Shown: positions 29,274-47,667, counted from the stretch's first letter. The stretch: DNA of 64,000 nucleotides from Dehalococcoidia bacterium (GCA_965197585.1 OZ240215.1:2496001-2560000), one strand, 5' to 3'. Numbers and translations: made by a program. Notes: generated from the sequence alone by a model not told the origin.

Positions 29274-29425
29274 GAGACCTTTGCATAATCTCTCGTGGTG
29301 GGGCCTGGGCCGCTCGTGCTGTCGTATATCCGCCGAGGCGGGAGGCTCTCGAAGTATGAGCGGGGGTGGAGGTCACGTGATCTGGGCAGTACAGCAGAGG
29401 CAATCTGTAGTTGTGCAAAGGTCTT
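29274..29425. mobile_element. MITE copy B, inserted in the loop of a family A palindrome
   Basis: Flanked by CCCCTCTCCCTCGAT and TCGACGGGAGCGGGTGAT; carries a 21-nt internal insertion. Confidence 0.75.
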
Positions 29426-29486
29426 TCGACGGGAGCGGGTGATCAGCGTCTCGCAACACCCGTCAGTCGAAGCCCTACGAAAAGAA

Positions 29487-29954
29487 TCACCCCCCAGACT
29501 CCTCCTCCCGCAGTTTCTCCAACCCTTTAAGCAGCTTCTTCACGTGCCGACCTATTCCCACAACCACGTATTCATGTGCCCCCCGCACCACCCCCGACTG
29601 GTCAATCAGGTAAGCCGTCCTGAATCCCCCAAACACCCGTAGCGAATCGTAAGATTTCCTGATCTTCCTGTCGGGGTCGGACAGCAGGACAGCCTGCATC
29701 CCAAACTCACTGCGGAACTGCGCATTGACCTCGGGGGTGTTGGGACTGATCCCGGCGACTAGGGCGTTGTATCCCTGGAAGGCTTCATCCGCGTCACGGA
29801 AGCCCTTAGATTGGATGTTTCAGAGGATGCTGAAGGCCCCGGTGTGAAAATACAGCACCACGGGTTGACGGCCAAAGTGCTCGCTCAGTCTGAACGTCTC
29901 GCCGTCATGCTGCACCGCCTCGAAATCCGGGGCCCTGGTCCCTACCTTTATCAT
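29487..29954 (-). CDS. BCP/PrxQ-like peroxiredoxin, probable selenoprotein (TGA at codon 45)
   Basis: MIKVGTRAPDF...VVLYFHTGAFSIL-TGA-NIQSKGFRD...GIS...LLSDPD...RTAYLID in one frame through TGA 29820-29822. Confidence 0.85.
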
Positions 29955-30038
29955 TCTCTCTCCCATTTACCTGTTGTTGCCCAATCCTACACGCCGCCGG
30001 GCTGCAGTTCTCTATGTACCTGACGTCTGAACTAGCCC

Positions 30039-30521
30039 TCACTCGGGTCGCACTTCCCCTCCCCCCTCCCTGTCCAGGGCCCTCAGCCCATCCAGCACAT
30101 CGTCCACGTGCTTGCCGATTCTCACCTCGTGATGGAACACCTCCCTGATGACCCCCGCCTTGTCGATAAGGTAAGTCACCCGAGACACCCCCAGTCCCAT
30201 CCTCCTTGCAACGTCGTAGAGCCGGGCGACCTTCTTGTCGGGGTCCGACACCAGCGTGAACGGAATAGAAAAATGGCGTCGGAACCAGTCGTGGCTTTCC
30301 GGGCTGTCGGTGCTGATCCCCACCACCTGCGCCCCGTACCCCCTTATGGCTTCATATGCGTCACGGAAGCCTCTGGCCTGGCGGTTTCAGCCGGCAGTGA
30401 AGTTCTTCAGATAGAAATAGAGTACGACCGCCCTGTCACCACGCCAGTCGGCGAAGTTAAACCTCTCGCCGTCATGCTGCATCGCTTCAAAATCCGGCGC
30501 CCGAGTCCCAACCTTCAGCAT
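30039..30521 (-). CDS. BCP/PrxQ-like peroxiredoxin, probable selenoprotein (TGA at codon 45)
   Basis: MLKVGTRAPDF...VVLYFYLKNFTAG-TGA-NRQARGFRD...GISTDSPESH...RVTYLID; TGA 30387-30389 sits at the peroxidatic Cys position. Confidence 0.88.
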
Positions 30522-30637
30522 TCTTCCTCCACCTATCCCTAATACTGCCCATTCTACCCCACCCCCCCACCCCCTCCGTCATTCCAGCCGCCGAGAGCCG
30601 AAATCCATCCCGTCTCCCTTCTACCCAGTACTGAACT

Positions 30638-30676
30638 AGAGGCCCGCACGGGTGCTGTGCACCCGTGCGGGCCTCT
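30638..30676. terminator. Perfect 18-bp hairpin, terminator-like
   Basis: AGAGGCCCGCACGGGTGC-TGT-GCACCCGTGCGGGCCTCT. Confidence 0.55.
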
Positions 30677-30794
30677 GTTCTTATCTCCCCCTCTCCCTTG
30701 AAGGCCCTAAGGGTCGAAGATGCGCCTATGGCGTGAGAGGGGGATCAAGGGGGTGAGGGTTCCCCTGTGGGGCTGGGGCGGTGTCCCCAAAAGT

Positions 30795-31493
30795 GTGACA
30801 CGAACCCCTTGACCCTACCCAAACATACGTGCTACTATCCTCACCGTTCGAACACCAACCTAACTTACCCAAGGAGGAACCAAAAACCCAGGGAAGCCCA
30901 CCCGACCCACCCGAGGACTCAACGTCCAAGCCCATCCCAAAGGCCCTCGCTCAGGCCCGCGGCTCAAGCTGGAACATCCGCCTCAGGCGGGAAACGACGC
31001 CATCTCCTCCTCCCACGGGCCCGGCTCACCCTTCCCCCTACTTCCAGGCGATGGAAGGTCCACAATACTAAACGGCATGTCCCTTGCAAAGGACCCCTGC
31101 CGGAATAGCCCCGCTCACGCCGGGCTAAAACACTCGGGCCTCACGGCCCTTGGAAAATCTCCCCCGTCGTTCCCTTCGGAGATCCCCATACACCCAGCGA
31201 CGGCAGCGAGAAAACGCTCGCCATCCCTCCGAGTGGCCTAGAGAAGTCTGGTGGTAGAGGCAGCCCCGAGGCGAGGACCCCTCGCTTCTCTACCACGTCA
31301 TTACAGAAACACGAGGCTGAACCAGGCTGGCCTCCCGCCCCCTGAATCCGAGTCCAGGACCTTCCATCGCCTGCCCCCTCCCAAACCAAACAGAACAAAC
31401 CGAAACCCCACAATCGAAGATGGAACATCCGCCTCTGGAGGATCCGCCTCTGGAGGACTGAAGAAAAACCCGGTGTGTCACCAACCTACCGGA
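30795..31493 (+). ncRNA. Candidate large structured ncRNA element, copy 1
   Basis: Own promoter, no credible ORF, 17-bp long-range stem 31045-31061/31357-31373, homologous to 43357-44062. Confidence 0.55.
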
Positions 31494-31576
31494 TCGGTAC
31501 GGTTCGTTGACCCGACATTTACCCCAAATGTATACTCGAATTCATCTGAGGCCCCGCTTTTATCAGGAGGAATATC

Positions 31577-32740
31577 ATGACCCGTTCCATCGTAATCGAC
31601 GCCGACAGCCACATCATGGAACCGCCCACCTTGTGGCAGGAGTACATGGACCCCGAGTTCCGTAGCCGGGCCCTGCGAATCAGTGCGGATGAATTCGGCT
31701 TGGAGTATCTCGACATCGATGGCAAGGTCAGCATCGGGTACAACGGGGGCACCCTGGGCAGGATTGCGGGCGTCGACCAGACCCGGCAGTGGATGATGGA
31801 GCATCCCACCCTCCCCTATGACGAGATCAAGAACTTCGCCCCGGGATCCGTAGACCCCCACGCTCGGATCAAACACCTGGATAGGCACGGTGTCGACAAG
31901 ACCTTCCTCTTCCCGACCCTCGGCCTCGGTTGGGAAGCCGAGTGCGAAGACCCTGCACTTTCCGCCGCCTATTGCACCGCCTACAACCGCTGGCTTGTCG
32001 ATTTCTGTGCGCCCTACCCCGACCGGCTGATCCCCATAGCCCACGTCACGGTGCGAGACGTGAACGAGGGCATCAAGGAATTGGAGAGGGCCGCAAGGGA
32101 TGGCATGAAGGGCGCATTCATCTGTCCGGCGCCCATGAACGGCATCCGCTACAGCCACGAATACTATGACCGTTTCTGGGCCACCGCCCAGGACCTGGAC
32201 ATGCCCATAACCTTCCACGTAGTCCTCAACCCCGACTACCCCGGCCGCAACTCTTATCCTGAAGACGAGACCGGCCTCGGCCCCGTGTTCTTCAACAACG
32301 TGATGACCTTCGCCGACCCCCTGATCAGCTTTACCTGCATGATGGGCGACGGCACCTTCGAAAAGTTCCCCGGCCTGAAACTGTCCATGGTCGAAGTCGG
32401 CTGTACCTGGCTCCTCCACTGGCTCGACATGATGGATTTCAAAACCGGTCGGTTCAGCTTCGACATGTCCCTTACCATGACCCCCAGTGAGTACTTCCGT
32501 CGCCAGGTCTGGGTCAGCGCTGAACCTATCGAAAAGGGCCTCGGCGCAGTGGCCCAGATGGTCGGGACCGACCGCTTCATGTGGGGTTCCGACTGGCCCC
32601 ACCCCGAGGGCCACACCGACCCCCTCAACAAGGTCAAGCACAACATCGCAAGCCTTTCGGAAGCCGACCAGAACAAGATCCTGGGCGAAAACGCCCTCGC
32701 CATGTACGGCCTGTCCGTGCCCGCCCCTGCCGTGGGCTAG
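31577..32740 (+). CDS. Amidohydrolase_2 family protein (paralog 1)
   Basis: DADSH, AYNRWL, FWA..QDL..P..FH, WGSDWPHPEG. Confidence 0.92.
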   Translation: MTRSIVIDADSHIMEPPTLWQEYMDPEFRSRALRISADEFGLEYLDIDGKVSIGYNGGTLGRIAGVDQTRQWMMEHPTLPYDEIKNFAPGSVDPHARIKHLDRHGVDKTFLFPTLGLGWEAECEDPALSAAYCTAYNRWLVDFCAPYPDRLIPIAHVTVRDVNEGIKELERAARDGMKGAFICPAPMNGIRYSHEYYDRFWATAQDLDMPITFHVVLNPDYPGRNSYPEDETGLGPVFFNNVMTFADPLISFTCMMGDGTFEKFPGLKLSMVEVGCTWLLHWLDMMDFKTGRFSFDMSLTMTPSEYFRRQVWVSAEPIEKGLGAVAQMVGTDRFMWGSDWPHPEGHTDPLNKVKHNIASLSEADQNKILGENALAMYGLSVPAPAVG

Positions 32741-32759
32741 ACGAAAAGGAGTATCTGCT

Positions 32760-33920
32760 ATGGCACCTGGAATAGTTGTCGACTCGGACAGCCACATCCT
32801 GGAACCCGCCACTATGTGGAGGGACTACATTGATCCTGACTACCGCTCGCGCGCCATGGGCATTGAGTTCGACGAACTGGGTCTCGAATACCTGGACATC
32901 GACGGCAAGATGAGCAGCGGCTACAACGGCGGCGCTCTTGGCCGCATCGCCGGCGTCGAGAAGGACCGCGAGTGGATTATGGGTCACGCTACCCTCCCCT
33001 ACGCCGAGGCCGCCACCCTCGCCCCCGGCGCTGCCTACCCCGCCGAGAGAATCAAGCACCTCGCCAGGGAGGGCGTCGATAAGACCTTCCTCTTCCCCAG
33101 CCTCGGCCTCGGTTGGGAAGCCGAGTGTGAAGACGCCGAAATCTCCGACGCCTATTGCCGGGCCTACAACCGCTGGCTCGTCGATTTCTGCAAGGATCAC
33201 CCGGACCAGCTCTTCCCCGTGGCCCACGTCTCCGTCAGAGAGGTCGAGTTCGGTGTCGCCGAGCTCCAGCGCGCCGCCAAGGACGGTATGAAGGGCGCTT
33301 TCATCTGCCCTGCCCCCGTCAACGGCATCCGCTACGGAGACTCCTATTACGACCCCTTCTGGGCTGCCGCCCAGGACCTCGACATGCCTATCACCCTGCA
33401 CGTCATCTTCAACCCCAACTACGTCGGCAAGCACCTCTACCCCGACCACCCCGGCCTCGGGCCCGAGTTCTTCGTCGAGTCCATGGTCTTCGGCGATCCC
33501 TTCCTCTCCTTCACCAACATGATGACCGAAGGCGTATTCGAAAAGTTCCCCAACCTCCGCATCTCCATGGTCGAGATTGGCTCCACCTGGGTCGCCCACT
33601 GGCTCGACTTCCTGGACTTCAAGTTCTCTCGCTTCGGCTTCGACACCATCCTCACCATGAAGCCCAGCGAGTACTTCAAACGCCAGTGCTGGATCAGCGC
33701 CGAACCTATAGAGAAAGGCCTGGGCGCCGTGGCCCAGATCGTCGGCACGGACCGCTTTCTCTGGGGCTCCGACTGGCCCCACCCCGAGGGCCACACCGAC
33801 CCCCTGAGCAAGGTCAAGGCCAACATCGCCGATCTCCCGGAAGCAGACCAGCGCAAGATTCTCGGCGAAAACGCCCTAGCCCTCTACCGCCTGGCCTCCC
33901 CGGCTCCGGCTGTAGGGTAG
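32760..33920 (+). CDS. Amidohydrolase_2 family protein (paralog 2)
   Basis: Close tandem paralog; DSDSH, WGSDWPHPEG; SD AAGGAG before ATG 32760. Confidence 0.92.
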   Translation: MAPGIVVDSDSHILEPATMWRDYIDPDYRSRAMGIEFDELGLEYLDIDGKMSSGYNGGALGRIAGVEKDREWIMGHATLPYAEAATLAPGAAYPAERIKHLAREGVDKTFLFPSLGLGWEAECEDAEISDAYCRAYNRWLVDFCKDHPDQLFPVAHVSVREVEFGVAELQRAAKDGMKGAFICPAPVNGIRYGDSYYDPFWAAAQDLDMPITLHVIFNPNYVGKHLYPDHPGLGPEFFVESMVFGDPFLSFTNMMTEGVFEKFPNLRISMVEIGSTWVAHWLDFLDFKFSRFGFDTILTMKPSEYFKRQCWISAEPIEKGLGAVAQIVGTDRFLWGSDWPHPEGHTDPLSKVKANIADLPEADQRKILGENALALYRLASPAPAVG

Positions 33921-33945
33921 GTCTCAATCCACCAACGAAAGAAAG

Positions 33946-33979
33946 ACGCCGGACTGTTGAACAGTCCGGCGTTCTTTTC
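33946..33979. terminator. Intrinsic terminator
   Basis: 12-bp stem ACGCCGGACTGT/ACAGTCCGGCGT plus T tract, between convergent genes. Confidence 0.8.
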
Positions 33980-34018
33980 TCAGTCCCATAAGGCCAGGTC
34001 CTACCTGAGGTGTTCCCA

Positions 34019-35017
34019 TTATGCGAATTGCGGCATAACCTCCCGAGCAAACGTCCTCATCATCGCCACGAACCTCGGCAGGTTCTCCGCCCAGCACCTC
34101 ATACCCAGCCCATGGACACCCGCCTCCTGATAGGCCTCGATCACCTTCGAAATCCTCCCCACAGACCCCACCAAAGACCCCGCCAACCCCTCTTCAAAGG
34201 TGTGTATCTCAGTCACCAGTGTCTTCCTCGTCATCGCCTGTGCCGCAGCGTCCTCGTCTATGTATAGGGGTATGTACCCCGTCACCTGAAAGTCCACGTC
34301 CCCCCTCCCCGACTCCGCCGCCAGCTCCCGGATACGCTTGATTCCGTCGGCCATCACGTGGGGAGGCCCTTCAGGTATCCACCCGTCGCACCGCTCGGCG
34401 ATACGGCGCATCGCCGGCTCGTACAGCTTCGGTGCCCGAGTCTTGCGCGGGTACACCACCCCTCCCCCATACAGCACCGGCACCTTAGGCGTCGTCTTCG
34501 GGAAATACGACGCGTTTTCAAACGAGATGTTCGGCCCCTGAAAGTCCACGTGCCCGCCCTGGAAGGCGGCATTCAGCACGTTGATGTATTCGTCCGTGAT
34601 ACGGTTCTTTTCGTCGTAGGGGATCTGCATCACCCGGAAGTCGCTGGGGTAGTCCCCGATCCCGACACCCAGCATCAACCTACCCCCAGAAAGAGCCTGC
34701 AAAGTCATCGCCTGCCTAGCCAAAACCCTCGGATCCCGGAGGGGCAACACCAGAATCGCCGTACCCAGCTTCACGTTTTGCGTCATCCCCGCCACCCACG
34801 TCAGCGTGCTTATAGACTCGTAGAAGTGAGGTTCTATTCCCTCACACTGCTCAATCAGCCCCGACCCCCTGTGAAGGAACCAGTCCGTATCGTAGGTCAC
34901 GTGGTCGTGGCACCACACCGAGTCGAAACCCAGGTCATCAGCCTCTAGCGCCACCCGCCTGATAGCCTCCACCCCCGCCAGCGCCCCCGAATGCGGCAGC
35001 ATAATCCCAAACTTCAT
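34019..35017 (-). CDS. LLM-class flavin/F420-dependent oxidoreductase
   Basis: GFDSVWCHDH, LGTAILVLPLRDP, LSGGRL.LGVG.G. Confidence 0.9.
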   Translation of the reverse strand: MKFGIMLPHSGALAGVEAIRRVALEADDLGFDSVWCHDHVTYDTDWFLHRGSGLIEQCEGIEPHFYESISTLTWVAGMTQNVKLGTAILVLPLRDPRVLARQAMTLQALSGGRLMLGVGIGDYPSDFRVMQIPYDEKNRITDEYINVLNAAFQGGHVDFQGPNISFENASYFPKTTPKVPVLYGGGVVYPRKTRAPKLYEPAMRRIAERCDGWIPEGPPHVMADGIKRIRELAAESGRGDVDFQVTGYIPLYIDEDAAAQAMTRKTLVTEIHTFEEGLAGSLVGSVGRISKVIEAYQEAGVHGLGMRCWAENLPRFVAMMRTFAREVMPQFA

Positions 35018-35069
35018 GATGTCACCTCCATATCAAGGCTAGGGGCAAAGATAACACACCCCATTTCAA

Positions 35070-36245
35070 CTACTTCACGTACAGCTTGTGCTCCAACCCA
35101 TCCGTCAGAGTCTTGCACCCGTCCTCCGTGACGAGAATCGTGTCGCTGTTCACCGCCCTCTTCACCCTGCCGAGACCCTGCAGGGCCACATGCCCCGCCA
35201 GCAGGTGGAAGGTCATTCCCGCCTGAAGTGGCCGGGTCTCCCCCTCCGTCATACTGATGATGTGCCCTTCGCCCCAGTCCGGCGCAAAAGCGATTCCTAT
35301 CGAATATGCCGCCCGGCTGTTTCGCTTGCTCCCCGAGCCCATTGCCTCCTCCAGGCTCTCCTGCACCAGCCGGTGTATCTCCCCCGCCGGGACCCCCGGC
35401 CTGATCGCCGACTTCGCCATAGCCATCACTTCCACACCCACCTCCCGGGCCCTGAGCAGCAGTTCAGGTGGGTCCCCGAGAAATATCTGCTGATAGGTCG
35501 CCGCGTGATAGCGGTTAATACACCCCGGCATCTCTATTGTCACGCTATCCCCGGGCTGTATCACGTTCCGATACCACGTCGAATGGGTCATCGAGTCCCG
35601 CTCCCCCGTCCTTATGAATATCGGCAGTCCCGTATACTCGCTCCCCGCCTTTATCTGCGCCCGATGAATCTCCGCCGCCACGTCGTTCTCCGTCACCCCC
35701 ACCTGGCAGGCCTCGATCCCCGCCCTCAACCCCGCCTCCGCCGTCTTCGCCGCCTGCCTTATGTACTCGATCTCCTGCGCTGATTTCACCATCCTCCCCT
35801 CCTCCACCAGCCCCGACCCATCCACAAAAGTCGCTGACGATAAGGCAGCCGCAAGCCCCTTCTCATCACGAGATGTCAGGAAGAACGAGTCATATTGCAC
35901 CCCGATACGCGCATCTGCCTTACCCAGGTCCGTTAGCACGTCCCGCGTGTGGGCTATCCAGTCCTCATGGTCTTCGTAGGGCCGGCTGTCCTCGACCCAG
36001 GATTGAGGCGCAATGTTGGACTCCTCATTGAGCCGGGTGATGAACACCGGCTCCCGGTCCATCGTCACTATCAGCATCTGGTACCAGTAGTAGCCGGGAG
36101 TCTGGTAACCGGAAACGTAATACAAGTTCTCCGGCGAGTTGACCAGCAGAACATCAATCCCCCGTTCTTCCATCCGGTGTCGCAGCGCATCAAGCCGCCC
36201 TTGATATTCCTCCAGCGTGAAGAACTGGTACTTGGGGCTCCTCAT
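35070..36245 (-). CDS. M24 pita-bread hydrolase, DoeA/EutD- or creatinase-like (paralog 1)
   Basis: PENLYY.SGY, R.VKS..EI, RYHA, YSIGIAFAPDWGEG. Confidence 0.85.
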   Translation of the reverse strand: MRSPKYQFFTLEEYQGRLDALRHRMEERGIDVLLVNSPENLYYVSGYQTPGYYWYQMLIVTMDREPVFITRLNEESNIAPQSWVEDSRPYEDHEDWIAHTRDVLTDLGKADARIGVQYDSFFLTSRDEKGLAAALSSATFVDGSGLVEEGRMVKSAQEIEYIRQAAKTAEAGLRAGIEACQVGVTENDVAAEIHRAQIKAGSEYTGLPIFIRTGERDSMTHSTWYRNVIQPGDSVTIEMPGCINRYHAATYQQIFLGDPPELLLRAREVGVEVMAMAKSAIRPGVPAGEIHRLVQESLEEAMGSGSKRNSRAAYSIGIAFAPDWGEGHIISMTEGETRPLQAGMTFHLLAGHVALQGLGRVKRAVNSDTILVTEDGCKTLTDGLEHKLYVK

Positions 36246-36267
36246 ATCTGCTCCTTCGGTCTAGTCG

Positions 36268-37428
36268 TTACTTGACGAACAACTTCTGTTCCACACCACC
36301 CGTCAGCGTCTCACAACCGTCCTCCGTGACCAGGACAGTGTCGCTGCAGAGAATGCCCCCGAACCCCGGGACCCGAACCCCGGGAATCAGGTGGAATGCC
36401 ATCCCGGCCTGCAGAGGTCGCTCCTCACCTCTAGTGATGCTGATGATGTGCCCTTCTCCCCAGTCGGGAGCGAAGGCTATGCCTATCGAGTACGCCGCCC
36501 GACGCTCCAGTTTCGCCCCCAGGTCCGCCGAGTCCAGCATCTCCTTGATCTCTTCGAACAGGTCCCCCGCCACGACCCCCGGCCTGATCTTCTCCTTGGC
36601 CTTCTTCAGGGTGTCGGTAACCACATCCATCCCCCTCACCATCATCTCCGACGGCTCCCCGATATACACTTCCCTCATCATGGCGACGTGATAACGGTTC
36701 ACGCACCCCGGCACCTCGAAGAAGACTACCTCGTTTTCCTGCAAAGGCCTCCTGTACCAGGTGGCGTGCGTCATTGTAGACCGCACACCCGAGGCCACAA
36801 AAATCGGCAAGCCCGTGTATTCGCTTCCTGCCTTGATCTGTGCCCTGTGCATCTCCGCCGCCACGTCGTTCTCTGTCGCGCCGAGCCCCACCGCCTCTAT
36901 CCCCGCCAGGGTAGCCGCCTCTGCAGCCTTAGCTGCCTGCCGCATGTACTCGATCTCCTGTGGAGACTTGATCATCCGCCCCTCTTCGATCAGTCCCGTG
37001 CTGTCCACGAACTTGGCCCCCGGCATCAGGCCCTTCAGCTTCAGATAGTCCCTTGCCGGAAGAAAGAAACTCCCAAGCTCCATCCCGATCGTCTTCCCCC
37101 CGAGCCCCAGGTCCACCAGCACGTCCCGAGTCTTCTCCACCCAGTCCTCATAGTCCTCATACGGCCGCCGGTCCTCGACCCACCCCAGCTCCCGCATGTT
37201 TGAGTCCTCAACCCGCCGCGTGATCGACACAGGCTCCCGGTCCATTGGCACAACCAGCGTCTGCCACCAGTAATACCCTGGCGTCTGGTAGCCTGAGAGG
37301 TAGTACAGGTTCTCCGGCGTGTTCACCAGCACCGCATCCACCCCCAACCCCTCCATCCGCCCCCGAAGCGCATCGAGCCTTTGCTGGTACTCCTCCAGCT
37401 CAAAATACTGCCAGTTCGGTTTCTTCAC
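36268..37428 (-). CDS. M24 DoeA/EutD-like hydrolase (paralog 2)
   Basis: Same motifs as paralog 1. Confidence 0.85.
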   Translation of the reverse strand: MKKPNWQYFELEEYQQRLDALRGRMEGLGVDAVLVNTPENLYYLSGYQTPGYYWWQTLVVPMDREPVSITRRVEDSNMRELGWVEDRRPYEDYEDWVEKTRDVLVDLGLGGKTIGMELGSFFLPARDYLKLKGLMPGAKFVDSTGLIEEGRMIKSPQEIEYMRQAAKAAEAATLAGIEAVGLGATENDVAAEMHRAQIKAGSEYTGLPIFVASGVRSTMTHATWYRRPLQENEVVFFEVPGCVNRYHVAMMREVYIGEPSEMMVRGMDVVTDTLKKAKEKIRPGVVAGDLFEEIKEMLDSADLGAKLERRAAYSIGIAFAPDWGEGHIISITRGEERPLQAGMAFHLIPGVRVPGFGGILCSDTVLVTEDGCETLTGGVEQKLFVK

Positions 37429-37494
37429 CTATTCCTCCGTTGCCCTCTCTCTTTGTTGATCCATTGCCTTACCCCGCCATCTTAGGCGGGGTAT

Positions 37495-37539
37495 TCCGCT
37501 CGCCCTGAGCTGAGTCGAAGGGTCTCAAGAGCGGAATCG
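37495..37539. repeat. REP-like repeat family B (CCGCTCGCCCTGAGC-n-GTCGAAGGG)
   Basis: Related copies near 42335, 43176, 47396, 54991 and inside the MITEs. Confidence 0.75.
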
Positions 37540-37636
37540 GTGGGGTGTCCCGGCCCCCGCCCGGAGTTACGCAAAGGTCTCTCGATGGGAGAGGGCCAGG
37601 GTGATCCCCGTTCTTGTGACTGGAAGGTCTATCCCC

Positions 37637-38797
37637 CTACTTCGAAAACAGCTTCCTCTCCACATTCCCAGTTATCGGCTCACAACCGGTCTCCGTCACC
37701 AACACCGTCTCGCTCACCCCCACCGACGACAGCCCCGGTATAAAAATAGCCGGTATCAGGTGGAAGGTCATCCCGGCCTTCAACTCCCGGTATTCACCCT
37801 CGTTCATGCTGATAATGTGCCCTTCGCCCCAGTCCGGCGCAAACGCTATTCCTATGGAATATGCTGCCCGGTGAGTCAGCTCCACCCCCAGCCCCGCCCC
37901 CCCGATGACGTTCTTGCACACCATGTGGGCGTCGTGAGCCGTGACCCCGGGTTTAATAAATTTGATCATTTCCTCCAGGGCCTCAGCCATGACGGCCGTC
38001 GCCTTTATGGACCCCTCCGGCGGATCACCCAGGTACACGTTCCGCATCTGCGAGGCGTGGTACCGGTTGATGCAACCCGATAGCTCCAGGAACACCGTGT
38101 CCCCTGGCTGTATCGTTTCCCGATACCACGTTACGTGCCCCAGGAACGACCTCTTACCGGCGGTGACGAACAGGGGAAGCCCCGTGTATTCGCTCCCCGC
38201 CTTTATCTGCGCCGCATAGACCGCCGCCGCGACTTCATTCTCCGTCACCCCGACCTCCGACGCCTCTATCCCCGCCAGTACCCCCGCCTCCGTGGCCCGG
38301 GCTGCCTGCGTAATGTACTCGATCTCCTTCGGCGACTTGATCATCCTCCCCTCTTCCACCATCATCGAGCAGTCCACCCACTTCGCGTCCGGCAGCATCC
38401 CCTTCAACCTGTCGTAGTCCTGGATGGTTATGAACCAGGAGCTCATCTCCACACCTATCCTCTTCGACCCCATCCCCAGGTCCTCCAGCGTGTCCCGCGT
38501 CCGAGCCACCCAGTCGTCCGAGTCCCCGTAGGGCCGGCTGTCCTCCACCCAGGTCAGGTGCTCCACGTTGGAGTTTTCCAGGAGGCGGGTTATGAACACC
38601 GGCTCCCGGTCCATCGTAACTATGAGGGTCTGGTACCAGTAGTAGCCGGGGGTCTGGTACCCGGTTAGGTAATACAGGTTCTCCGGCGTGTGCACCATCA
38701 TGCAGTCCACACCCTTCGCCTCCATCCGCGCCCTTAGAGCGTCCAGCCTGCCCTGGTATTCCTCCAGGGTGAAGTACTGCCAAGTTGCCGTCTTCAT
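37637..38797 (-). CDS. M24 DoeA/EutD-like hydrolase (paralog 3)
   Basis: Same motifs as paralog 1. Confidence 0.85.
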   Translation of the reverse strand: MKTATWQYFTLEEYQGRLDALRARMEAKGVDCMMVHTPENLYYLTGYQTPGYYWYQTLIVTMDREPVFITRLLENSNVEHLTWVEDSRPYGDSDDWVARTRDTLEDLGMGSKRIGVEMSSWFITIQDYDRLKGMLPDAKWVDCSMMVEEGRMIKSPKEIEYITQAARATEAGVLAGIEASEVGVTENEVAAAVYAAQIKAGSEYTGLPLFVTAGKRSFLGHVTWYRETIQPGDTVFLELSGCINRYHASQMRNVYLGDPPEGSIKATAVMAEALEEMIKFIKPGVTAHDAHMVCKNVIGGAGLGVELTHRAAYSIGIAFAPDWGEGHIISMNEGEYRELKAGMTFHLIPAIFIPGLSSVGVSETVLVTETGCEPITGNVERKLFSK

Positions 38798-38835
38798 TTA
38801 TATCTCCCTTCTCTTCGAATCATATCCCCTTGCCC

Positions 38836-40371: not shown

Positions 40372-40466
40372 ACTCACCTTGGTAAAGGGGATATCGGAAA
40401 AGCCGCTGCGAGTATATCAAACTACCGTTGGCGGCAATTGCAAAATGCTGCAGCCTCGGTTGGGCC

Positions 40467-41936
40467 TCACACCGGCGCCCGCAGGTGCCTCCACCCCATG
40501 GATTGCTCGTACGCATAGGCCGCACGGAATATCGTCGGCTCCCCGAATGGCTTCGCCATGATCTGCATCCCGACCGGCAGCCCGAAGGAAAACCCCGCCG
40601 GCACCGAGATTGACGGTATACCCGCTATGTTAGCCGGGATCGTGCAGATATCACTCAGGTACATCTGCACCGGGTCGTCCGTCTTATCTCCGAGGGCGAA
40701 GGCCGGTGTTGGGCAGGTTGGCGCAATTAGCGCGTCGTACCGCTCAAACGCTTCGTCGAACTCCCGCCTGATCAGCGTCCTCACCTTCTGCGCCTTCAGG
40801 TAATAGGCATCGTAATACCCCGACGACAGCGCGTAAGTCCCGAGCATGATCCGCCGCTTCACCTCCGGCCCAAACCCCTGTTGCCGCGTCTTCTCCATCG
40901 CGTCCCACATGTTCTCCGCATCCTGCGCCGAGTAGCCGTACTTCACCCCGTCATACCTCGCCAGGTTCGCCGAAGCCTCAGACGGTGCGATTATGTAGTA
41001 CACCGCCAAAGCATATTTCGTGTGTGGCAGTGATACCTCCCGGTCGACCTCGGCCCCCAGCTCCTCCAGCTTCGCCAGTGCCCTTTCCATCACGTCCACC
41101 ACATCCCTCCCTATCCCCTCGACGAAGTATTCCTTCGGCACCCCGATTCGCATCCCCTTGATGTCTGGGAGCAGGGCCTCGGTGTAGTCGGGAGGCTGAA
41201 ATGGCACGGACGTCGAGTCCCGGGCATCGTGCCCTGCGATGGCGTTCATCACCAGGGCGCTGTCCGTCACGTCCTTGGTCACCGGCCCTATCTGGTCCAG
41301 TGAGCTCCCGAAAGCGACCAAACCGTACCTGCTCACTGCGCCGTAGGTCGGCTTCAGCCCTACCACCCCGCAGAACGACGCCGGTTGCCGGATGCTTCCT
41401 CCAGTGTCGGACCCCAGTGAGTACATCGCCTCCCCTGCCGCCACCGCTGCCGTCGCTCCCCCGCTGCTCCCCCCCGGCACCCGACCCAGGTCCCAGGGAT
41501 TGTGCGTAGTGTAAAAAGCCGAGTTTTCCGTCGACGACCCCATAGCGAATTCGTCCAGGTTCCCCTTGCCCACCAACACCGCCCCCGATTCCCGCAGCTG
41601 CTCTGCCACGTGGGCGTTGTAGGGTGGAACGAATTTCTCCAGCATCTTGGACGAGCACGTAGTTCGGATGCCGGTGGTGCAGATGTTGTCCTTGAGCATC
41701 ATCGGCACGCCATCCAGCGGCCCCTGCCTTCCCGACGCAGCCCTGTCGTCTGCGGCCTTGGCGTCGGCCAAAGCCCTTTCGCCCGTGACGGTAACGAAGG
41801 CCCGCACCCTCTCGTCCACGTTCTCGATGCGACCCAAGACCGCCTCGGTTAGCTCCGTAGACGTGATCTCCCGCGCCGCGAGAAGGTCCGCCGCGTCGTG
41901 AAGGGTGAGGTCGTGAAGGGGTTGCTGTCTGCTCAT
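40467..41936 (-). CDS. gatA: Asp/Glu-tRNA amidotransferase subunit A
   Basis: GGSSGG, GSDTGGSIRQP, NLARYDG, EVKRRIMLGTY. Confidence 0.97.
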   Translation of the reverse strand: MSRQQPLHDLTLHDAADLLAAREITSTELTEAVLGRIENVDERVRAFVTVTGERALADAKAADDRAASGRQGPLDGVPMMLKDNICTTGIRTTCSSKMLEKFVPPYNAHVAEQLRESGAVLVGKGNLDEFAMGSSTENSAFYTTHNPWDLGRVPGGSSGGATAAVAAGEAMYSLGSDTGGSIRQPASFCGVVGLKPTYGAVSRYGLVAFGSSLDQIGPVTKDVTDSALVMNAIAGHDARDSTSVPFQPPDYTEALLPDIKGMRIGVPKEYFVEGIGRDVVDVMERALAKLEELGAEVDREVSLPHTKYALAVYYIIAPSEASANLARYDGVKYGYSAQDAENMWDAMEKTRQQGFGPEVKRRIMLGTYALSSGYYDAYYLKAQKVRTLIRREFDEAFERYDALIAPTCPTPAFALGDKTDDPVQMYLSDICTIPANIAGIPSISVPAGFSFGLPVGMQIMAKPFGEPTIFRAAYAYEQSMGWRHLRAPV

Positions 41937-41944
41937 GGGTCAGG

Positions 41945-42232
41945 TCAACCGAGGACCGGCTTGACCCTGAAATAGTCGTCGTCTCTGCGTGGGGCGTTGG
42001 CCAAAACATCCTGCGAGGGCAGAGACGGGCGGTCTTCGTCGTCCCTGAAGACGCTGGATACGTCTACGGTGTGAGAAGTTGGGGGAACGCCCTCCGTATC
42101 CACCTCTTTGAGCACCCTGAACTGCTCCAATATATGGGACAGCTGCCCCCCGAAGGTCTCCAGGTCTTCCTCGGTCATCCCGACCCGGGCCAACAGGGCT
42201 ATGTGCTCTACTTCCTCTCGACTTAATAGCAT
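41945..42232 (-). CDS. gatC: Asp/Glu-tRNA amidotransferase subunit C
   Basis: EEVEHIALLAR, VDTEGVPPT, LANAP...YFRV. Confidence 0.95.
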   Translation of the reverse strand: MLLSREEVEHIALLARVGMTEEDLETFGGQLSHILEQFRVLKEVDTEGVPPTSHTVDVSSVFRDDEDRPSLPSQDVLANAPRRDDDYFRVKPVLG

Positions 42233-42687
42233 GGCTCCCCCAAGTACGCCATTATATACCACCTACTCCCTCCATAATTCCGCCCCCCGAGCCAGTCGCA
42301 GTTGCGCCGAGACATGAATCTATCTCCTGGCGGGGCCGCTCATCCTGAGCACCGTCGAAGGGTCGAGCGGGGGGAGTGACCCCGTAGTGACAACGCCTCG
42401 TGGTTACCCGACACCACCCCACCCCATTCTCCCCCGCCATCCCGCCCCTTACAGCGTCATCCCACCCATTACACTGTCGTTCCGAGGCCCCGCGAGGAAT
42501 CTGGGGCGGGGAGTCCGGTCCCCTCTCCATTCGAGGGGAGAGGGCTAGGGTGAGGGTGATTCCCTCCCCCGATCTCGCACCCCACGCAGAGCCTCCGAAA
42601 GAATGGAGGTAAACACCAGCCACAAACTCAGCTAAAATACATCGTCCGCAGACAAGATCTAACCCCACAACCTAAAGGCAGGAAATC

Positions 42688-43098
42688 ATGTCCCTAAACG
42701 TATACCTCCACTTCAACGGCAACTGCCGTGAGGCTTTTGAGTTCTACCGTTCAATCTTCGGCGGCGAGTTCGATCTCATCACCACCTTCGGCGACGGCCC
42801 CCCGGAAATGCAGATTCCGGAGGAAGAGCGAGATGGCATCATGCACGTCTCCTATACCATCGGCGACAACGTGCTCATGGGCAGCGACATGCCATCTAAT
42901 TTTGGCATGACCGTTAATCAGGGTAACAACTTCTCCCTCTCCTACGCCCCCGCCAGCAGGGAGGAGACCGACCAACTCTTCGCCAAGCTGTCGGAGGGCG
43001 GCAGCGTAAGCATGCCTCTGGGCGACATGTTCTGGGGCTCCTACTTCGGTGCCTGCACCGATAAGTTCGGCATCAACTGGATGCTCGACTTCGGTTAG
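42688..43098 (+). CDS. PhnB-like VOC protein
   Basis: YLHFNGNCREAFEFY, MGSD, FWG..FG...DKFGINW. Confidence 0.9.
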   Translation: MSLNVYLHFNGNCREAFEFYRSIFGGEFDLITTFGDGPPEMQIPEEERDGIMHVSYTIGDNVLMGSDMPSNFGMTVNQGNNFSLSYAPASREETDQLFAKLSEGGSVSMPLGDMFWGSYFGACTDKFGINWMLDFG

Positions 43099-43356
43099 AG
43101 TTGACCGCCCGCACCGCTGGGAAGCTGCCTCGTAATTCCGGCCCCTCATACCCTTAACCGTCCTTAGGGCGGGGAATTCCGCTCGCCCTGTCGAAGATGC
43201 TGCAAGGGGAACGTCAGCCTCGGGAGGATGCGCCTTTGGCGTGCGCCGTGGCGTAAGCTTAGTCGAAGCCTGTCCTGAGTCTCTCGAAGAGGGTCTCTAG
43301 GGCGGAATGGGGTGGCGCAGTCCCTGTTACTCACCGTGAGTCCGTTCACATAGAGA

Positions 43357-44062
43357 GTGACATCACCCTCTTGACTTTATAAGACGTATGTTCTATATTG
43401 GAAATAGTCTAGACCACCTAACCCAACCACCTTAAGGAGGTACCGCACAACCTAGGGAAGCCCACTCGACCCACCGAGGACTCAACACCCAAGCCCATCC
43501 CAAAGGCCCTCGCGCAGGCCCGCGGCACAAGCAACCGGTGCCATCTCCTCATCCCCATCGGGTCCCGTGCCCTCTTCCCTGACACCCAGGCGATGGAAGA
43601 CATCCTGGACTCACCCCGGCACAGGCCCTCCTGAGTGAAGGGCCGTCGCAGCCGATGTAGCCCACTCTTTATCCGGCGCCGGCCTTCCTCTAATGGAAGG
43701 CCGTATAGATGGGCCATAACAGCCGAAAGATGCAGCGCCTTCCTTGCAGGGCGCACTACGTGGCCGGCATTGACCTTGCCGGCGAATCGAAAGAGCCCCC
43801 CAACGTGGGGCTACAAGGGCCATCGAGCCCTTCTGGTGGACGGGGAACCCCCACACCGGGAGATTCTCTCCACCCCGACCGCCTTCACAAACACAAGTGG
43901 GGTGAGCAGGTCGGCCTCCCGCCCCCTGCGCCCGAGTCCCGGACCTTCCATTGCCTGCCCCCTCCCAACAGACAGAACGGAAACCGAAACCCCACAATCG
44001 AAGATGGAACATCCGCCTCTGGAGGACTGAATAAAAGGCCGGTGTGTCGCTAACCTACTGGA
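43357..44062 (+). ncRNA. Candidate large structured ncRNA element, copy 2
   Basis: Promoter TTGACT-17-TATATT, long-range stem 43587-43612/43934-43957, ends conserved with copy 1. Confidence 0.55.
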
Positions 44063-44186
44063 CGAGTACTCACCACCGCCGCCCCCCACCCCAATGTTGT
44101 ATTATTGCCCGCAGGCCCCGAGGCCACGTAGTCGGCAGGCGCAGGGCGGTCTCGTAAATTAATACTATCGGTAGGAATACAAGCAA

Positions 44187-45536
44187 ATGCCAGAAGACGA
44201 CAACAATGTCCTTGATGCCGTAATTGTGGGAGCGGGGATAGCGGGATTGACTGCTGCCTACCGGCTTAAAGACAAGAACATCCTTGTCCTCGAAAAAGAG
44301 GATGTGTGCGGCGGCCGCACCGTCTCCCGCAAGATGGGCGAATACGTTTACAACACCGGTGCCCAGGTCGTCCTAGGCGACGAAAGCGAAACGGCAAAGC
44401 TCGCCCGGGAAATCGGAGTCGAAAAGACCCTCATCGGCAAGACCCGCATGCCCATGCACATGAAGGGCAAGCTCATCACAGCCCCCCTCAAACCCAAGAC
44501 CCTGGGTGAACCGCTCTTCCTCTGGCGATTGCCAATACCTTTCTTCGAAAAAGTGAAGATAGGCCTCAAGGTCCTCCGAATCCGCCGCCGATACAGCGAG
44601 CTCGTAGACCAGGAGCCCGACCCCTATAACAAGAAGACCCAGGAGCTCTCCTCCGAGACCCTCGAAAGCTTTATGGGCGCCTATCACCCCGATATCCGCG
44701 CCATCTGGGACACCCTCTCCAAGGGCGCCAACACCGTCACCGCAGACCAGGTTGCCGCCTTCCAGCCCATCAACACCTTCCTCCATTTCGCAGAGGACGA
44801 GTATTACGTTAACGGCGGCACCTGGGAGCTGACCAAGGCCCTCTGGGACAAAGTCAAAGACAAGACCGAGACTTCCGCAAGCGTCGACGAGATAGTCCAC
44901 GAAAACGGTACCGTACGCGTCACCTATGACCACGCCGGCCAACGTACGTCCGTCACCGCCCGACGTTGCGTAATCGCAATCCCTGGCCCCCTCGTGTCGC
45001 CTATTGTCAAGGATATGCCTCAATGGAAGCGCGATGTCCTTGCCAAGGTCGACTTCGGCGCCATGACCTCCGCCGGTTTCCTCCTTAGCGAAAATTCGGA
45101 GCGATTCCTCGGCGAAGGCGTCTGGCGCGTACCAATTGTCGGCAAGAAGATCGTCTCCGTGACCAATCCCACCTTCACCTTCCCCAAGGAGGTCAAACAG
45201 CGCACGGGCCAGGGCCTCCTGCGGGTCTATACGGGTGACAAGGCTTCCAAGGAGCTCCAGCAGATGTCTGACGGCGAAGCCCTTGAAGTCCTCACTGAGG
45301 AGCTTGTCTCCGCCTTCCCTGACATAGCGGGCAAGATCGTGGAAACCTCCATAAAGCACTGGCCTAATGCCATCAGCCCCTGGCGCGTGGGCCGACTCGA
45401 AATCGCCGAGCAGATCAAGCAGCCCACGGGTCGCATTCATTACTGCGGCGATTACACCGTCAGCGGTGGCCTGGAGGCCGCCGTCCTTTCCGCATACCGC
45501 ATCCTGCGTGAAATGGAAACTGAACCCGCCGCCTAA
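44187..45536 (+). CDS. FAD-dependent amine oxidase / protoporphyrinogen oxidase-like (paralog 1)
   Basis: GAGIAGL, LEK...GGR, CGDY...LEAAVLS. Confidence 0.85.
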   Translation: MPEDDNNVLDAVIVGAGIAGLTAAYRLKDKNILVLEKEDVCGGRTVSRKMGEYVYNTGAQVVLGDESETAKLAREIGVEKTLIGKTRMPMHMKGKLITAPLKPKTLGEPLFLWRLPIPFFEKVKIGLKVLRIRRRYSELVDQEPDPYNKKTQELSSETLESFMGAYHPDIRAIWDTLSKGANTVTADQVAAFQPINTFLHFAEDEYYVNGGTWELTKALWDKVKDKTETSASVDEIVHENGTVRVTYDHAGQRTSVTARRCVIAIPGPLVSPIVKDMPQWKRDVLAKVDFGAMTSAGFLLSENSERFLGEGVWRVPIVGKKIVSVTNPTFTFPKEVKQRTGQGLLRVYTGDKASKELQQMSDGEALEVLTEELVSAFPDIAGKIVETSIKHWPNAISPWRVGRLEIAEQIKQPTGRIHYCGDYTVSGGLEAAVLSAYRILREMETEPAA

Positions 45537-45553
45537 CCCGCTGCATATATACC

Positions 45554-46888
45554 ATGCCTGATGCCTCAAACTCCCCCGACTCCCTCCTGGACCTGGTCAT
45601 TGTAGGCGGCGGCCTCGCCGGGCTTACCACTGCCTACCGACTGCGTGAGCGGAATATCCTCCTCCTGGAAAAGGAGGATATTCCCGGCGGCCGGACCGAG
45701 TCCCGAGCCCTTGGCCCTTACGTCTACAACGCCGGGGCCCAGGTCGTCCTCGGGGACACGGGCCCCTTGGCCACGCTCGTCGATGAGATAGGAGTCAAGC
45801 GCACCCTGATCGCCAAGTCCAAGCTTCCCCTCTATATGAACGGCAAACTAGTCGCATCCTCCAACGAGTACGGGCTCCTTCTCAAGATGCCCATACCCTT
45901 CCTGGACAAGATCAAGTTCGCCTGGCACATCTGGAAAACCCGGCGAAAATACAGGTCCCTCTTAAACGCCGACTTCGATCCCACCGACCCCAAGGTCATC
46001 GAGCTAAACTCCACCACCGTCGACGAATTCTTAGGCAACGCCCCGAAGTCCGTGCGCGAGTTGTGGGACGTCTTCGCCGTAACCGCCAGCACCATGGGCG
46101 CCGACACCGTCACCCCATTCCACCCCCTCATGGTTATCCTCTTCTTCATGGCCGACGAATATTTCGTCGAGGGCGGCACCAACCAGGTCACCATCGCCCT
46201 CCACCGCCTGCTCGGTGACAAAGCGGTTCTCGGCGCCGAAGTGCTCGAAGTGAAAGAGCTGGAGGATCGAGTCCAGGTCACTTACGACCGCGGAGGCAAG
46301 AAACAGACCGTGCAGGCCCGACGCTGCATCATGGCTACCCCGGCTCCCATAACCCTAAACTGCGCCCAGGACCTCCCCGACTGGAAACGGGAAGCTCTCG
46401 CCAAAATTGAGTACGGCTCCATGACCACCGCGGCATTCCTGGTCGATGAGCTTTCCGAAAATCTCATCGGTAAGGGCGTATGGCGGGTTCCCGTCTCCGG
46501 CCAGAAGGTCTGCGCTATAACTGACCCCTCTTTCACCTATCCCGATGACTACAAGAGCAAGACTGGCATGGGGATCCTGCGCGTATACACCGGCAACGCA
46601 GTTGCCAAGGACCTTATGTCTCGCTCGGACGGCGAAGTGTCGGAAGTCCTGCTCGACGACCTTGTGGAGATGGTCCCTGCCGTCCGTGGCAAGATCGTAG
46701 AGTCGGATGTCGCCCACTGGAACCACGCCATACCTCTCTGGAAACCCGGCCACACCGAGATTTATCCCCTGCTGCAGAAACCCGTCGGCCGGCTCCATTT
46801 CTGCGGCGACTACACCAGCGCCGGGTTTACCAACGGCGCCGTCCAGTCCGGAGACCGAGTCGTCCAAGAGATTAAGGACCAGGACTGA
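45554..46888 (+). CDS. FAD-dependent amine oxidase-like (paralog 2)
   Basis: GGGLAGL, GGRT, CGDY...NGAVQSG. Confidence 0.85.
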   Translation: MPDASNSPDSLLDLVIVGGGLAGLTTAYRLRERNILLLEKEDIPGGRTESRALGPYVYNAGAQVVLGDTGPLATLVDEIGVKRTLIAKSKLPLYMNGKLVASSNEYGLLLKMPIPFLDKIKFAWHIWKTRRKYRSLLNADFDPTDPKVIELNSTTVDEFLGNAPKSVRELWDVFAVTASTMGADTVTPFHPLMVILFFMADEYFVEGGTNQVTIALHRLLGDKAVLGAEVLEVKELEDRVQVTYDRGGKKQTVQARRCIMATPAPITLNCAQDLPDWKREALAKIEYGSMTTAAFLVDELSENLIGKGVWRVPVSGQKVCAITDPSFTYPDDYKSKTGMGILRVYTGNAVAKDLMSRSDGEVSEVLLDDLVEMVPAVRGKIVESDVAHWNHAIPLWKPGHTEIYPLLQKPVGRLHFCGDYTSAGFTNGAVQSGDRVVQEIKDQD

Positions 46889-46902
46889 GACACCCCTACC
46901 CG

Positions 46903-47373
46903 ATGAACGCCGCCAGACCCGCATCCCAGGATAGCCTTCAGTTCAACCGAGAGGTATTAGGCAGAGACTACTTCAAGGCCACCCACGCCGTCACCCGAGA
47001 GATGGTGCTCGGTTTCTCCCGCGCAATCGGAGAGACCAACCCTCTTTTTGTCGACAAAGAAGCCGCCGCCTCGGGTCCCCACGGCGATATCATCGCACCT
47101 CCCTCCTTTGTCGCCTCCTTCGTCCGCCTCGACGAACCCGCAGACCTCAACCTCCGGTTCGATGGCACCATCTACATGGCCGGCCAGTGGGTCGAACCCC
47201 TCCTGCCCGTCCGTCCCGGCGACGTCCTGACCTGCACAGCCCGCGTCACTGATGTCTACCGAAAAACGGGCCGCTCAGGTGACATGGCCTTCATAGTCGT
47301 CGAGCACAACTTCCGCAACCAGAACGGCGAGTTGGTCGCCCGCGCCGGCCGCTCCCACGTCCGCCGCCGCTAA
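46903..47373 (+). CDS. MaoC-like dehydratase N-terminal (hot-dog fold) protein
   Basis: FSRAIGETNP, IAPPSF, PVRPGD, KTGRSG.M, NQNGELV. Confidence 0.85.
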   Translation: MNAARPASQDSLQFNREVLGRDYFKATHAVTREMVLGFSRAIGETNPLFVDKEAAASGPHGDIIAPPSFVASFVRLDEPADLNLRFDGTIYMAGQWVEPLLPVRPGDVLTCTARVTDVYRKTGRSGDMAFIVVEHNFRNQNGELVARAGRSHVRRR

Positions 47374-47499
47374 CCCCCTTCCCTCGGATTGGGGTATTCC
47401 GCTAGCCCTGTCGAAGATGCGCCGTGGCGTGAGCGGAGTCGAAGGGTCTCAAGAGCGGAATGCGGTGGGGCACTACCGCCCCTCATGCCCTTCTCGCCT

Positions 47500-47530: not shown

Positions 47531-47667
47531 CGTCGGCCCACAACCCACCTACCTCACCCCATCCTACCTTCCCATCCCACTCCGTCATTCTCGCCCCCGA
47601 GCCGGTCGCAGATGCGCCGAGCCGGAATCCATCCTCCCCTCATACCATCTCTGACAGTTACAGCCCC

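Follow-up and report, generated by a model that had tools for sequence, protein, structure and literature searches.

The single-contig genome of a Dehalococcoidia bacterium (GCA_965197585.1; 3.43 Mb, 59% G+C; G000 in what follows) carries units of 20-22 nucleotides (nt) that are inserted in other repeats, and we describe them here with reference to a stretch of 64,000 nt of that genome (OZ240215.1:2496001-2560000), hereafter the window, whose numbering applies to every coordinate up to 64,000 unless it is marked as a genome position. Each unit consists of a single-stranded leader of 8 nt and, behind it, a G+C hairpin of 5 bp whose loop measures 2-4 nt. The units are real and non-random, and the variety of their contexts, lineage-specific insertions at orthologous loci, the order in which they nest and the presence of two types at one site show that they are mobile on an evolutionary time scale. 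Among the sampled genomes, which include about 440 Chloroflexota from outside it, the unit family is restricted to one genus of the Chloroflexota. A conserved protein encoded in the window finds its nearest relatives, at ~60% identity, in metagenome-assembled genomes of this phylum. We give an even chance to the reading that the units are ultra-small non-autonomous mobile DNA elements, moved strand-specifically and akin to repetitive extragenic palindromes (REPs) and to the small dispersed repeats (SDRs) of cyanobacteria.

The units are evident in a motif-blind indel scan, in which 11-mer flanks that adjoin at one place are separated by 12-60 nt at another. This returned 1227 events, with an excess at 21 nt (109 events), 22 nt (61) and 23 nt (26), the neighbouring lengths of 19, 20, 25 and 26 nt having 10 events apiece, and with a distinct tandem-repeat background at multiples of three. 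By reading these events four families of common design were recognised, specifically; 1) F1, with the leader TCGNAGAT and the hairpin SCGCC-loop-GGCGK; 2) F2, with the leader YCGWAGRC followed by TCGCYGAGGMGAG; 3) F3, with the leader CTGNAAGT and the same SCGCC-loop-GGCGK hairpin; and, 4) F4, with the leader YGGAACRT and the hairpin CCGCC-loop-GGNGG. Genome-wide there are 106 copies of F1, 79 of F3 and 59 of F4 at no more than one mismatch (reversed-pattern controls 6, 5 and 5), and 44 copies of F2 at no more than two mismatches (reversed control 0). Together the four families amount to 288 units spread along the chromosome, 196 of which fall outside an open reading frame (ORF) proxy that spans 82% of the genome. 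The strict F1 pattern has 59 genome matches and the reversed-pattern control none, and within the window the core CGCC-N2-4-GGCG is found 21 times against 8.9 +/- 3.0 in shuffled sequence, a count of 21 being reached in 0 of 100 shuffles.

Within a unit the variable parts are leader position 4 and the loop, with the remaining positions conserved; the stem-loop portion takes up 12-15 nt and its stem 4-5 bp. Among 64 strict F1 copies leader position 4 is A in 25, C in 18, T in 18 and G in 3, and the outer stem position is paired in 63 (G.T 38, C-G 20, A-T 3, G-C 2) and unpaired in one. In F3 the outer position pairs in 33 of 33 copies. An earlier interpretation of the window made from its sequence without other data (the sequence-only reading) had described a short leader plus a hairpin whose outer pair changes compatibly, and the four pair types of F1 are covariation of this kind.

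The hosts of the units include two short hairpin repeats (HR1 and HR2), the inverted ends of a ~250-nt miniature inverted-repeat transposable element (MITE), the fused form of those ends (HR3), palindromes (HR4-HR7), a large non-coding element and the units themselves. Units enter HR1 and HR2 at the first terminal-loop base, HR3, HR4, HR5 and HR7 at the 3' foot of a short stem or slightly within it, and a resident unit between its leader and its hairpin. The micro-insertions into other repeats that the sequence-only reading proposed are present, and they extend to insertions in each other and at the stem boundaries of structured hosts. The base 5' of F1 units is G in 91 of 106 copies and the bases 3' are G in 79 of 106 and then A in 79 of 106, which gives KG^AR as the empty F1 site; one G is ambiguous and nothing is duplicated. 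Across units the junction ambiguity is 0-2 nt and a target duplication is not needed. A genome-wide census and a definition of the junctions, both put forward as checks by the same reading, thus give four counted families with precise, duplication-free junctions, and its view that the units are too short for ordinary MITEs agrees with a length of 20-22 nt, no inverted ends and no target duplication.

Flank contexts number about 130 altogether in the genome (F1 37, F3 46, F4 31, F2 15), with many singletons among them (F1 23, F3 35, F4 21, F2 12), and for 33 contexts G000 also has the empty site, matched exactly at 8+8 (F1 15, F3 8, F4 7, F2 3). F1 alone is found in at least nine unrelated host contexts and so is not the property of a single repeat. 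Units are also stacked. Of 287 units, 39 stand directly behind another leader, nests are up to three deep, with stacks of both F1>F3>F4 and F1>F4>F3, and the tails of the large element form an ordered series that runs from empty (CAA^CTGAAT) to F1, then to F4 in F1 and then to F3 in F4. Within the window (Table 1), the filled and empty copies on which the sequence-only reading was built compare as it said. The HR1 copies of MITEs A and C lack exactly the 21 nt found in MITE B, the second copy of the HR2 repeat that is filled at 47411-47431 is uninterrupted at the equivalent site, and the unit at 30970-30991 is confined to one of the two copies of the large element. The similar units it placed near 30714 and 50218 are also found, and the stacking it saw near 43190-43255 resolves into a three-level nest, F1 > F3 > F4-like.

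Table 1. Units, host repeats and large-element tails in the window
Feature	Position	Strand	Host, state or remark
F2 unit	13493..13513	+	Common to the G005 orthologue
HR1 copy without unit, 31 nt (MITE A)	24103..24133	+	G005 orthologue filled with a 21-nt F1; G003 empty
F2 unit	26218..26238	+	Common to the G005 orthologue
F1 unit, C-type stem, 21 nt	29322..29342	+	First loop position of an HR1 hairpin (29311-29362, 52 nt), MITE B
F1 unit, 22 nt	30714..30735	+	In the palindrome HR5, 5' of large-element copy 1
F4 unit, 22 nt	30970..30991	+	Within large-element copy 1; not in copy 2; present in the G005 orthologue
Large-element copy 1, 3' tail	31414..31457	+	F1 leader, F4 unit (31421-31442), second hairpin (31443-31457)
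Empty HR2 hairpin	37493..37537	+	Vacant target site 37507^37508, 5' edge of the terminal loop
Nest of three levels within an HR2 repeat	43191..43255	+	Outer F1 split by F3 (43200-43206 + 43229-43243)
Innermost F4-like unit of the 43191-43255 nest	43207-43228	+	Splits the F3 unit
Large-element copy 2, 3' tail	43998..44026	+	F1 leader + F4 unit, one hairpin
F1 unit, G-type stem, 21 nt	47411..47431	+	HR2 repeat directly past a MaoC-like gene's stop codon; site vacant in G007 and G008
Aberrant F1-like insert, 20 nt	47606..47625	+	Host HR7; leader + 5' half-stem, then host bases repeated
F1 unit, 22 nt	50218..50239	+	Left inverted end of MITE C, site GAG^ACC
HR1 copy without unit, 31 nt (MITE C)	50274..50304	+	Filled/empty comparison
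F3 unit	62809..62828	+	One pattern mismatch

Polymorphism in close genomes had been named as a further check, and alignment of the syntenic ~50 kb of three sister species with the window (genes 90-96% identical) does reveal filled and empty states at orthologous loci. MITE A is ~97% identical in G000, G003 and G005, and solely in G005 does it contain a 21-nt unit, with no nearby change. At the 30714 unit G005 has a second 21-nt unit, nested between leader and hairpin, which G000 is without, and the 30970 unit is common to both species. One HR2 locus is filled in G002 and empty in G005, the HR7 repeat at 47606-47625 is empty in G003, and the HR2 repeat downstream of the MaoC-like gene, filled in G000, has identical flanks and no unit in G007 and G008, which are more distant. 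The spacer concerned also holds an HR6 repeat, and of five species only G004 has it filled. HR1 is empty in all 38 copies of G004, G006, G007 and G008, and units occupy 15 of the 59 copies in G000 and 9 of the 39 in G001, the predominant loop types differing between the latter two. At the orthologous MaoC spacer G006 has another insert, of ~26 nt, in the HR2 loop.

As a separate observation, whole MITEs and hairpin repeats vary among species whose flanking genes are 90-96% identical (29211-29449, 37428-37633), with G002 lacking the entire MITE A, and intergenic repeat content changes much faster than the genes.

Relative to the host repeat the units have one fixed orientation. All 22 inserts among 83 HR1 copies point one way, and unit pairs no more than 200 nt apart are co-oriented in 49 of 51 cases and inverted in 2. 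The strand as written here lies on the C-rich strand in 243 units and on the opposite strand in 28, with 17 more in skew-free regions; the 28 discordant units cluster in apparent local inversions or near skew switches, and they bracket no candidate gene. The GC skew reaches -0.2 whatever the gene strand, and since gene strands are ~50:50 everywhere, gene-strand bias is unusable for fixing the direction of replication. An insertion sequence (IS) of IS481-like type is less biased (14/20). The strand bias belongs to the entire small-repeat population. The dnaA gene is at 3.03 Mb and the minimum of the cumulative skew near 2.6 Mb; cumulative skew is irregular, and the first ~0.65 Mb of the genome is almost skew-free with few repeats.

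F1 is present in nine of nine species of the genus, with 41-100 copies in seven of them and 2-4 in the sisters G006 and G008, and the copy numbers of F1, F3 and F4 vary in concert over these species (Table 2). In a midpoint-rooted, single-locus 2-kb tree G006 and G008 are sisters and stand beside the unit-rich G004, a position which makes their near lack of units look like loss or failed expansion. F1 and F3 have no matches in three other genera of the same family. A further 29 genomes of the class have 0 to 4 F1 matches apiece and no family, and 400 other Chloroflexota genomes have 0-1 each, save one with two and one, G293, with six. The last was considered as a second unit lineage and rejected; five of its six matches are identical copies of a longer repeat and so are not a dispersed family. 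In this longer repeat (L222-L226) the F1-like string stands behind a TCGAAGAC-like box, probably by chance. A contig scan with a shortened pattern found, among the matches listed, several Dehalococcoidia bacterium records and otherwise single matches in unrelated taxa, and is uninformative on distribution.

Table 2. Copies of three unit families and of the large-element motif in nine species of the genus
Genome	F1	F3	F4	Large-element motif
G000	59	32	35	55
G001	85	62	19	41
G002	58	21	21	48
G003	80	57	22	20
G004	100	42	3	19
G005	52	22	36	49
G006	4	1	0	19
G007	41	16	5	22
G008	2	1	0	21

Several observations weigh against the strand-specific movement of mobile units. The DNA hairpins are weak, at -2.0 to -5.4 kcal/mol with shuffle z values of -0.6 to -3.2 and one of +0.18, so that the case for hairpin structure rests on covariation, a signal that is itself inflated by the shared descent of unit subtypes. 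Much of the copy number is co-amplification with hosts, possibly with gene conversion, and there are host-specific unit subtypes; the C-type, for example, has the loop GAG in HR1 and AAG in HR4. In skewed regions the host repeats are at least as strand-biased as their inserts (HR1 56/56, HR3 55/56, HR6 28/28), and because of this the units may simply inherit their bias. The leading strand is inferred from GC skew alone, and the lone 16S gene points the other way, in a genome whose genes have no strand bias. Profile searches along the HUH/RAYT/TnpA route were also negative, PF01797 (Y1 HUH/RAYT, where RAYT is the REP-associated tyrosine transposase) being matched in none of the nine genus genomes by a search whose control matched 6 of 14 known genomes, and PF07282 (TnpB domain), PF03432 (relaxase) and PF08751 (TrwC) having no match in G000. 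Finally, the spacer at 29211-29449 is filled in three relatives and empty in G000, a pattern that could be due to precise loss or to a non-orthologous MITE, the core of which differs.

This spacer is one of two points in favour of a reversed polarity, in which the long forms came first and exact removal of 21-22 nt produced the short ones; the other is that the unit-poor G006 and G008 nest beside the unit-rich G004 in the single-locus tree, suggesting loss. We give this explanation hardly any weight. The outgroups are empty at the 47411 locus, at MITE A and at HR1 generally, and these states at orthologous loci and in HR1 argue against descent of the short forms from ancestral long ones. Moreover, the same unit is found in many unrelated hosts, and deletion would for that reason still need at least one insertion per host. 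Excision, which is itself a form of unit-specific mobility, may well occur.

It could also be that the units are passengers, with a few old insertions having been followed by amplification of the hosts and by homologous exchange between filled and empty copies, and with no continuing mobility of the units. We regard this as unlikely, if by some way the more serious concern. The largest same-context groups would fit it (19 and 12 for F1, and 25 of 44 F2 copies in one context), as would the tying of unit subtypes to particular hosts, the strong differences in MITEs and host repeats among sister species and the strand bias that host repeats share. It sits poorly, however, with the wide spread of contexts and their many singletons, with the finding of G-type and C-type units at the identical site in HR2, with the different predominant HR1 loop types of G000 and G001, with nesting at a fixed position in either order of F3 and F4, and with the insertion in MITE A of G005, which came without flanking substitutions.

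The sequence-only reading had suggested templated insertion of the reverse transcriptase (RT) kind or insertion by an HUH enzyme, possibly linked to the large RNA, and had proposed co-occurrence with RT or RAYT/TnpA genes as a check. The data support neither an RT route nor a Y1 HUH/RAYT/TnpA route, nor the link to the large element. PF00078 (RT) has no match in six unit-rich genomes (G000, G001, G002, G004, G005 and G007) and is present in G003, G006 and G008, the last two being unit-poor. The large element is a frequent host, yet it has ~20 copies in the two species that are nearly free of units. What speaks for RT-mediated templated insertion, for which transcripts of the large element are a possible source, is that units are found inside this promoter-bearing non-coding element and at its 3' tail and that the outer G.T would pair well in RNA, as G.U. 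Set against this, in addition to the distribution of RT genes and of the large element, the orientation of units in the window is independent of neighbouring gene direction, and the large element continues for at least 60 nt beyond the tail unit, from which it follows that the tail units are not its 3' end. We consider the RT explanation scarcely credible, and close to refuted.

Movement of a classical REP by a RAYT (TnpA_REP), or by a TnpA of the IS200/IS605 kind, is in our view highly improbable. The likeness is real in that a G-N-A-G leader core (GTAG in 18 of 64 F1 copies and in most F2) stands ahead of a hairpin, and in that the units are intergenic, of high copy, free of target duplications and biased to one strand. 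Passages of PMC8266576 define REPs as small palindromes behind a tetranucleotide, and passages of PMC3733652 record GTAG repeats in Chloroflexi, some of them within small palindromes. However, PF01797 is missing from all nine genomes despite the positive control, leader position 4 is free, the tetranucleotide is separated from the stem by 2 nt, the palindrome (12-15 nt) falls short of the 20-50 nt known for REPs, and inverted doublets are nearly absent. Thus, with no Y1/RAYT in nine genomes and RT in three, two of them unit-poor, both the RT and the classical REP/RAYT explanations are unsupported. The PF04986 (Y2) profile had no match in G000, its control also having none anywhere.

Other candidates for a mobilising enzyme were also considered. 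An IS110-family transposase was rejected, its presence being unrelated to unit load; it is found in four of nine genomes and not in the unit-rich G001, G002 and G007. The other multi-copy insertion sequences look DDE-type (IS481-, IS5- and IS30-like) as judged by eye from their ORFs, with no family scan. A bracketed gene of the REPtron-like kind was sought in 78 between-unit intervals and not found, their content being confined to large-element pseudo-ORFs, IS481-like transposase genes and ordinary paralogues. The IS481-like element (genome 111371-112468 and 17-20 other places) has an ORF of 329 amino acids, inverted ends and ~18-21 copies, most of which are 99% identical, indicating recent activity. 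Its right end carries an HR6-like palindrome, and copies often adjoin MITE ends or HR3.

We propose that the units transpose on folded single-stranded DNA at the replication fork. A cleave-and-rejoin activity would recognise leader and hairpin, in a manner functionally like IS200/IS605 or REP processing, and would be supplied in trans by an enzyme that the profiles searched do not recognise, possibly one with chemistry of the HUH kind. The preferred target is a G^A step bordering a small host stem, and further copies arise by fresh insertion as well as by amplification of the host repeats that carry units. Cleaving and rejoining of folded single strands is suggested by precise ends without duplication, fixed orientation, stem-boundary targets and the leader and hairpin features, and the mechanism as a whole is put forward on this analysis. 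Going further, we tentatively raise the prospect that the units are a new class of minimal mobile DNA, namely leader-and-hairpin units of 20-22 nt that enter the stem boundaries of folded single strands, strand-specifically, by means of an enzyme or a replisome-linked activity outside the known HUH, RT, DDE, DEDD and TnpB groups, though we think it rather more doubtful than the broader reading set out at the beginning.

The main enzyme-free alternative is template switching by the polymerase, in which a strand stalled at a host hairpin would copy a leader and hairpin elsewhere and then return, with no dedicated enzyme. It would explain insertion points at stem boundaries, an orientation that tracks replication-related skew and the failure of the searches to find a transposase, and slippage-type products do exist, such as the 15-nt tail duplication of the large element, duplications of 22-23 nt in HR2 loops and the insert at 47606-47625. 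Nevertheless, unit ends are constant to within one base in unrelated hosts with a single G as shared microhomology, the four families retain distinct leaders, and G006 and G008 have the hosts, presumably the same replisome and almost no units. We therefore think template switching decidedly unlikely.

The large element (30780-31500 and 43330-44070) is ~650-900 nt long, non-coding and repeated, with 37 copies in G000 by blastn and 55 by a 15-mer, and with 19-55 per genome in nine of nine species. It has a conserved promoter-like TTGAC-N17-TACTAT and an AAGGAGG box with no start codon behind it; its 5' and 3' parts are conserved and its middle is variable, with a weak predicted 5' consensus structure. 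Rfam gave no match at gathering thresholds in the window and only chance-level matches on the element. The sequence-only reading had placed the unit motif at the 3' end of both copies, with a tandem duplication in copy 1. There are tail units in both copies, as it said, but the element itself runs on past them, and the tail of copy 1 in G000 is longer by 15 nt than both the G005 orthologue and copy 2, which is either a tandem duplication or a slippage loss in G005.

The HR2 repeats at 43263-43290 and at genome positions 1577919 and 1866906 have a tandem duplication of 21-23 nt of their own loop (…GTCGAAG…), which is different from unit insertion. The MITE right end (50370-50420) and all HR3 contain GGG-AGA-GGG-CTA-GGG-TGA-GGG, a canonical G-quadruplex motif of four G3 runs with 3-nt spacers; F1 enters past run one and F2 within run three. 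Elsewhere in the window, two tandem peroxiredoxin/BCP-like genes (30048-30530 and 29472-29954, both on the minus strand) have an in-frame TGA at the expected position of the peroxidatic cysteine (…FTAG-U-N… and …FSIL-U-N…), and both are candidate selenoproteins.

The spread of very short bacterial repeats is still an open question, for which this genus is an unusually clean system, offering mostly single-contig genomes, four co-varying families, exact filled and empty orthologues and an order of nesting. As G006 and G008 keep the host repeats and have almost no units, they provide a natural experiment against the seven unit-rich species, and comparing gene presence and absence over the nine genomes could either identify a gene for mobilisation or show that movement needs none. 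Intergenic hairpins, MITEs and the large element are reshaped by the units as well, so that these rank among the main sources of intergenic divergence between species with genes 92-96% identical.

Among known systems, MITEs have terminal inverted repeats and a target-site duplication and are usually longer than 70 nt. The units have neither inverted ends nor a duplication, and the true MITEs of this genome, with inverted ends of ~30 nt, are their hosts. Elements of the IS200/IS605 family depend on TnpA, have two different subterminal hairpins and insert at a defined target of four or five nucleotides. The units differ in having one hairpin and only a G^A preference, in genomes with no TnpA (nine genomes) and no TnpB (G000). 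Shared with that family, as passages of PMC6006769 and PMC8266576 describe it, are the absence of a target duplication, precise ends, recognition of a hairpin plus adjacent bases and an orientation tied to replication.

According to PMC8266576, a REP is a palindrome of 20-50 nt directly preceded by a conserved tetranucleotide, mostly GTAG, the TnpA_REP of Escherichia coli cuts single-stranded REP at CT, and the spread of REPs has not yet been elucidated even with RAYT present. The units resemble REPs, and the doublets known as REPINs, in being intergenic, high-copy and non-autonomous, with a short hairpin behind a conserved single-stranded G-x-A-G motif, and the in vitro chemistry of REPs is likewise specific to a single strand and hairpin (passages of PMC8266576 and PMC3116915). 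They are distinguished by their 20-22 nt length with a palindrome of 12-15 nt, by the absence of tnpA_REP from the nine genomes, by the rarity of inverted doublets (2/51) and by their nesting in each other. As to the tetranucleotide, F1 has a variable G-N-A-G that stands 2 nt from the stem, and in F2 GTAG or GAAG abuts a possible 6-bp stem.

Nearest in description are the SDRs and the tagged REPs. The repeats SDR1-8 of Elhai and colleagues (2008) are reportedly 21-27 nt long and are reported to lie within other repeats and within one another. No enzyme is known to have been assigned to the cyanobacterial SDRs. Like SDRs, the units are of ~20 nt, dispersed, intergenic, proposed to be mobile, found inside other repeats and confined to a single lineage. 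Passages of PMC5861425 and PMC2884548 describe SDRs of Nostoc relatives as ~20 bp, possibly mobile and found in Nostocaceae only, with SDR5 inserting at HIP1. The units belong to Chloroflexota and not to Nostocaceae, and their own features are a uniform leader-and-hairpin design in four families, strand bias, orthologous filled and empty pairs and two nearly unit-free sister species. Because their host is a Chloroflexota genus, they are at most an analogue of SDRs.

Within the phylum, Di Nocera and colleagues (2013, PMC3733652) report GTAG-23 in Thermomicrobium roseum and Roseiflexus castenholzii, the T. roseum copies lying within small palindromes; these elements are small, single ones encoding 8 residues, and the CGTC palindromic repeats of the same source apparently have no dedicated transposase. 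F1 does not form a family in the 400 other Chloroflexota genomes sampled. In the literature on REPs and on REPINs without RAYT we found no report of such units in Chloroflexota, the figures of PMC3733652 and part of the supplements lying outside this comparison. As the units have neither the palindrome size of REPs nor a RAYT gene nor frequent inverted doublets, they are best placed among the very small mobile repeats as a kind, and as a member of neither the tagged REPs nor the SDRs.

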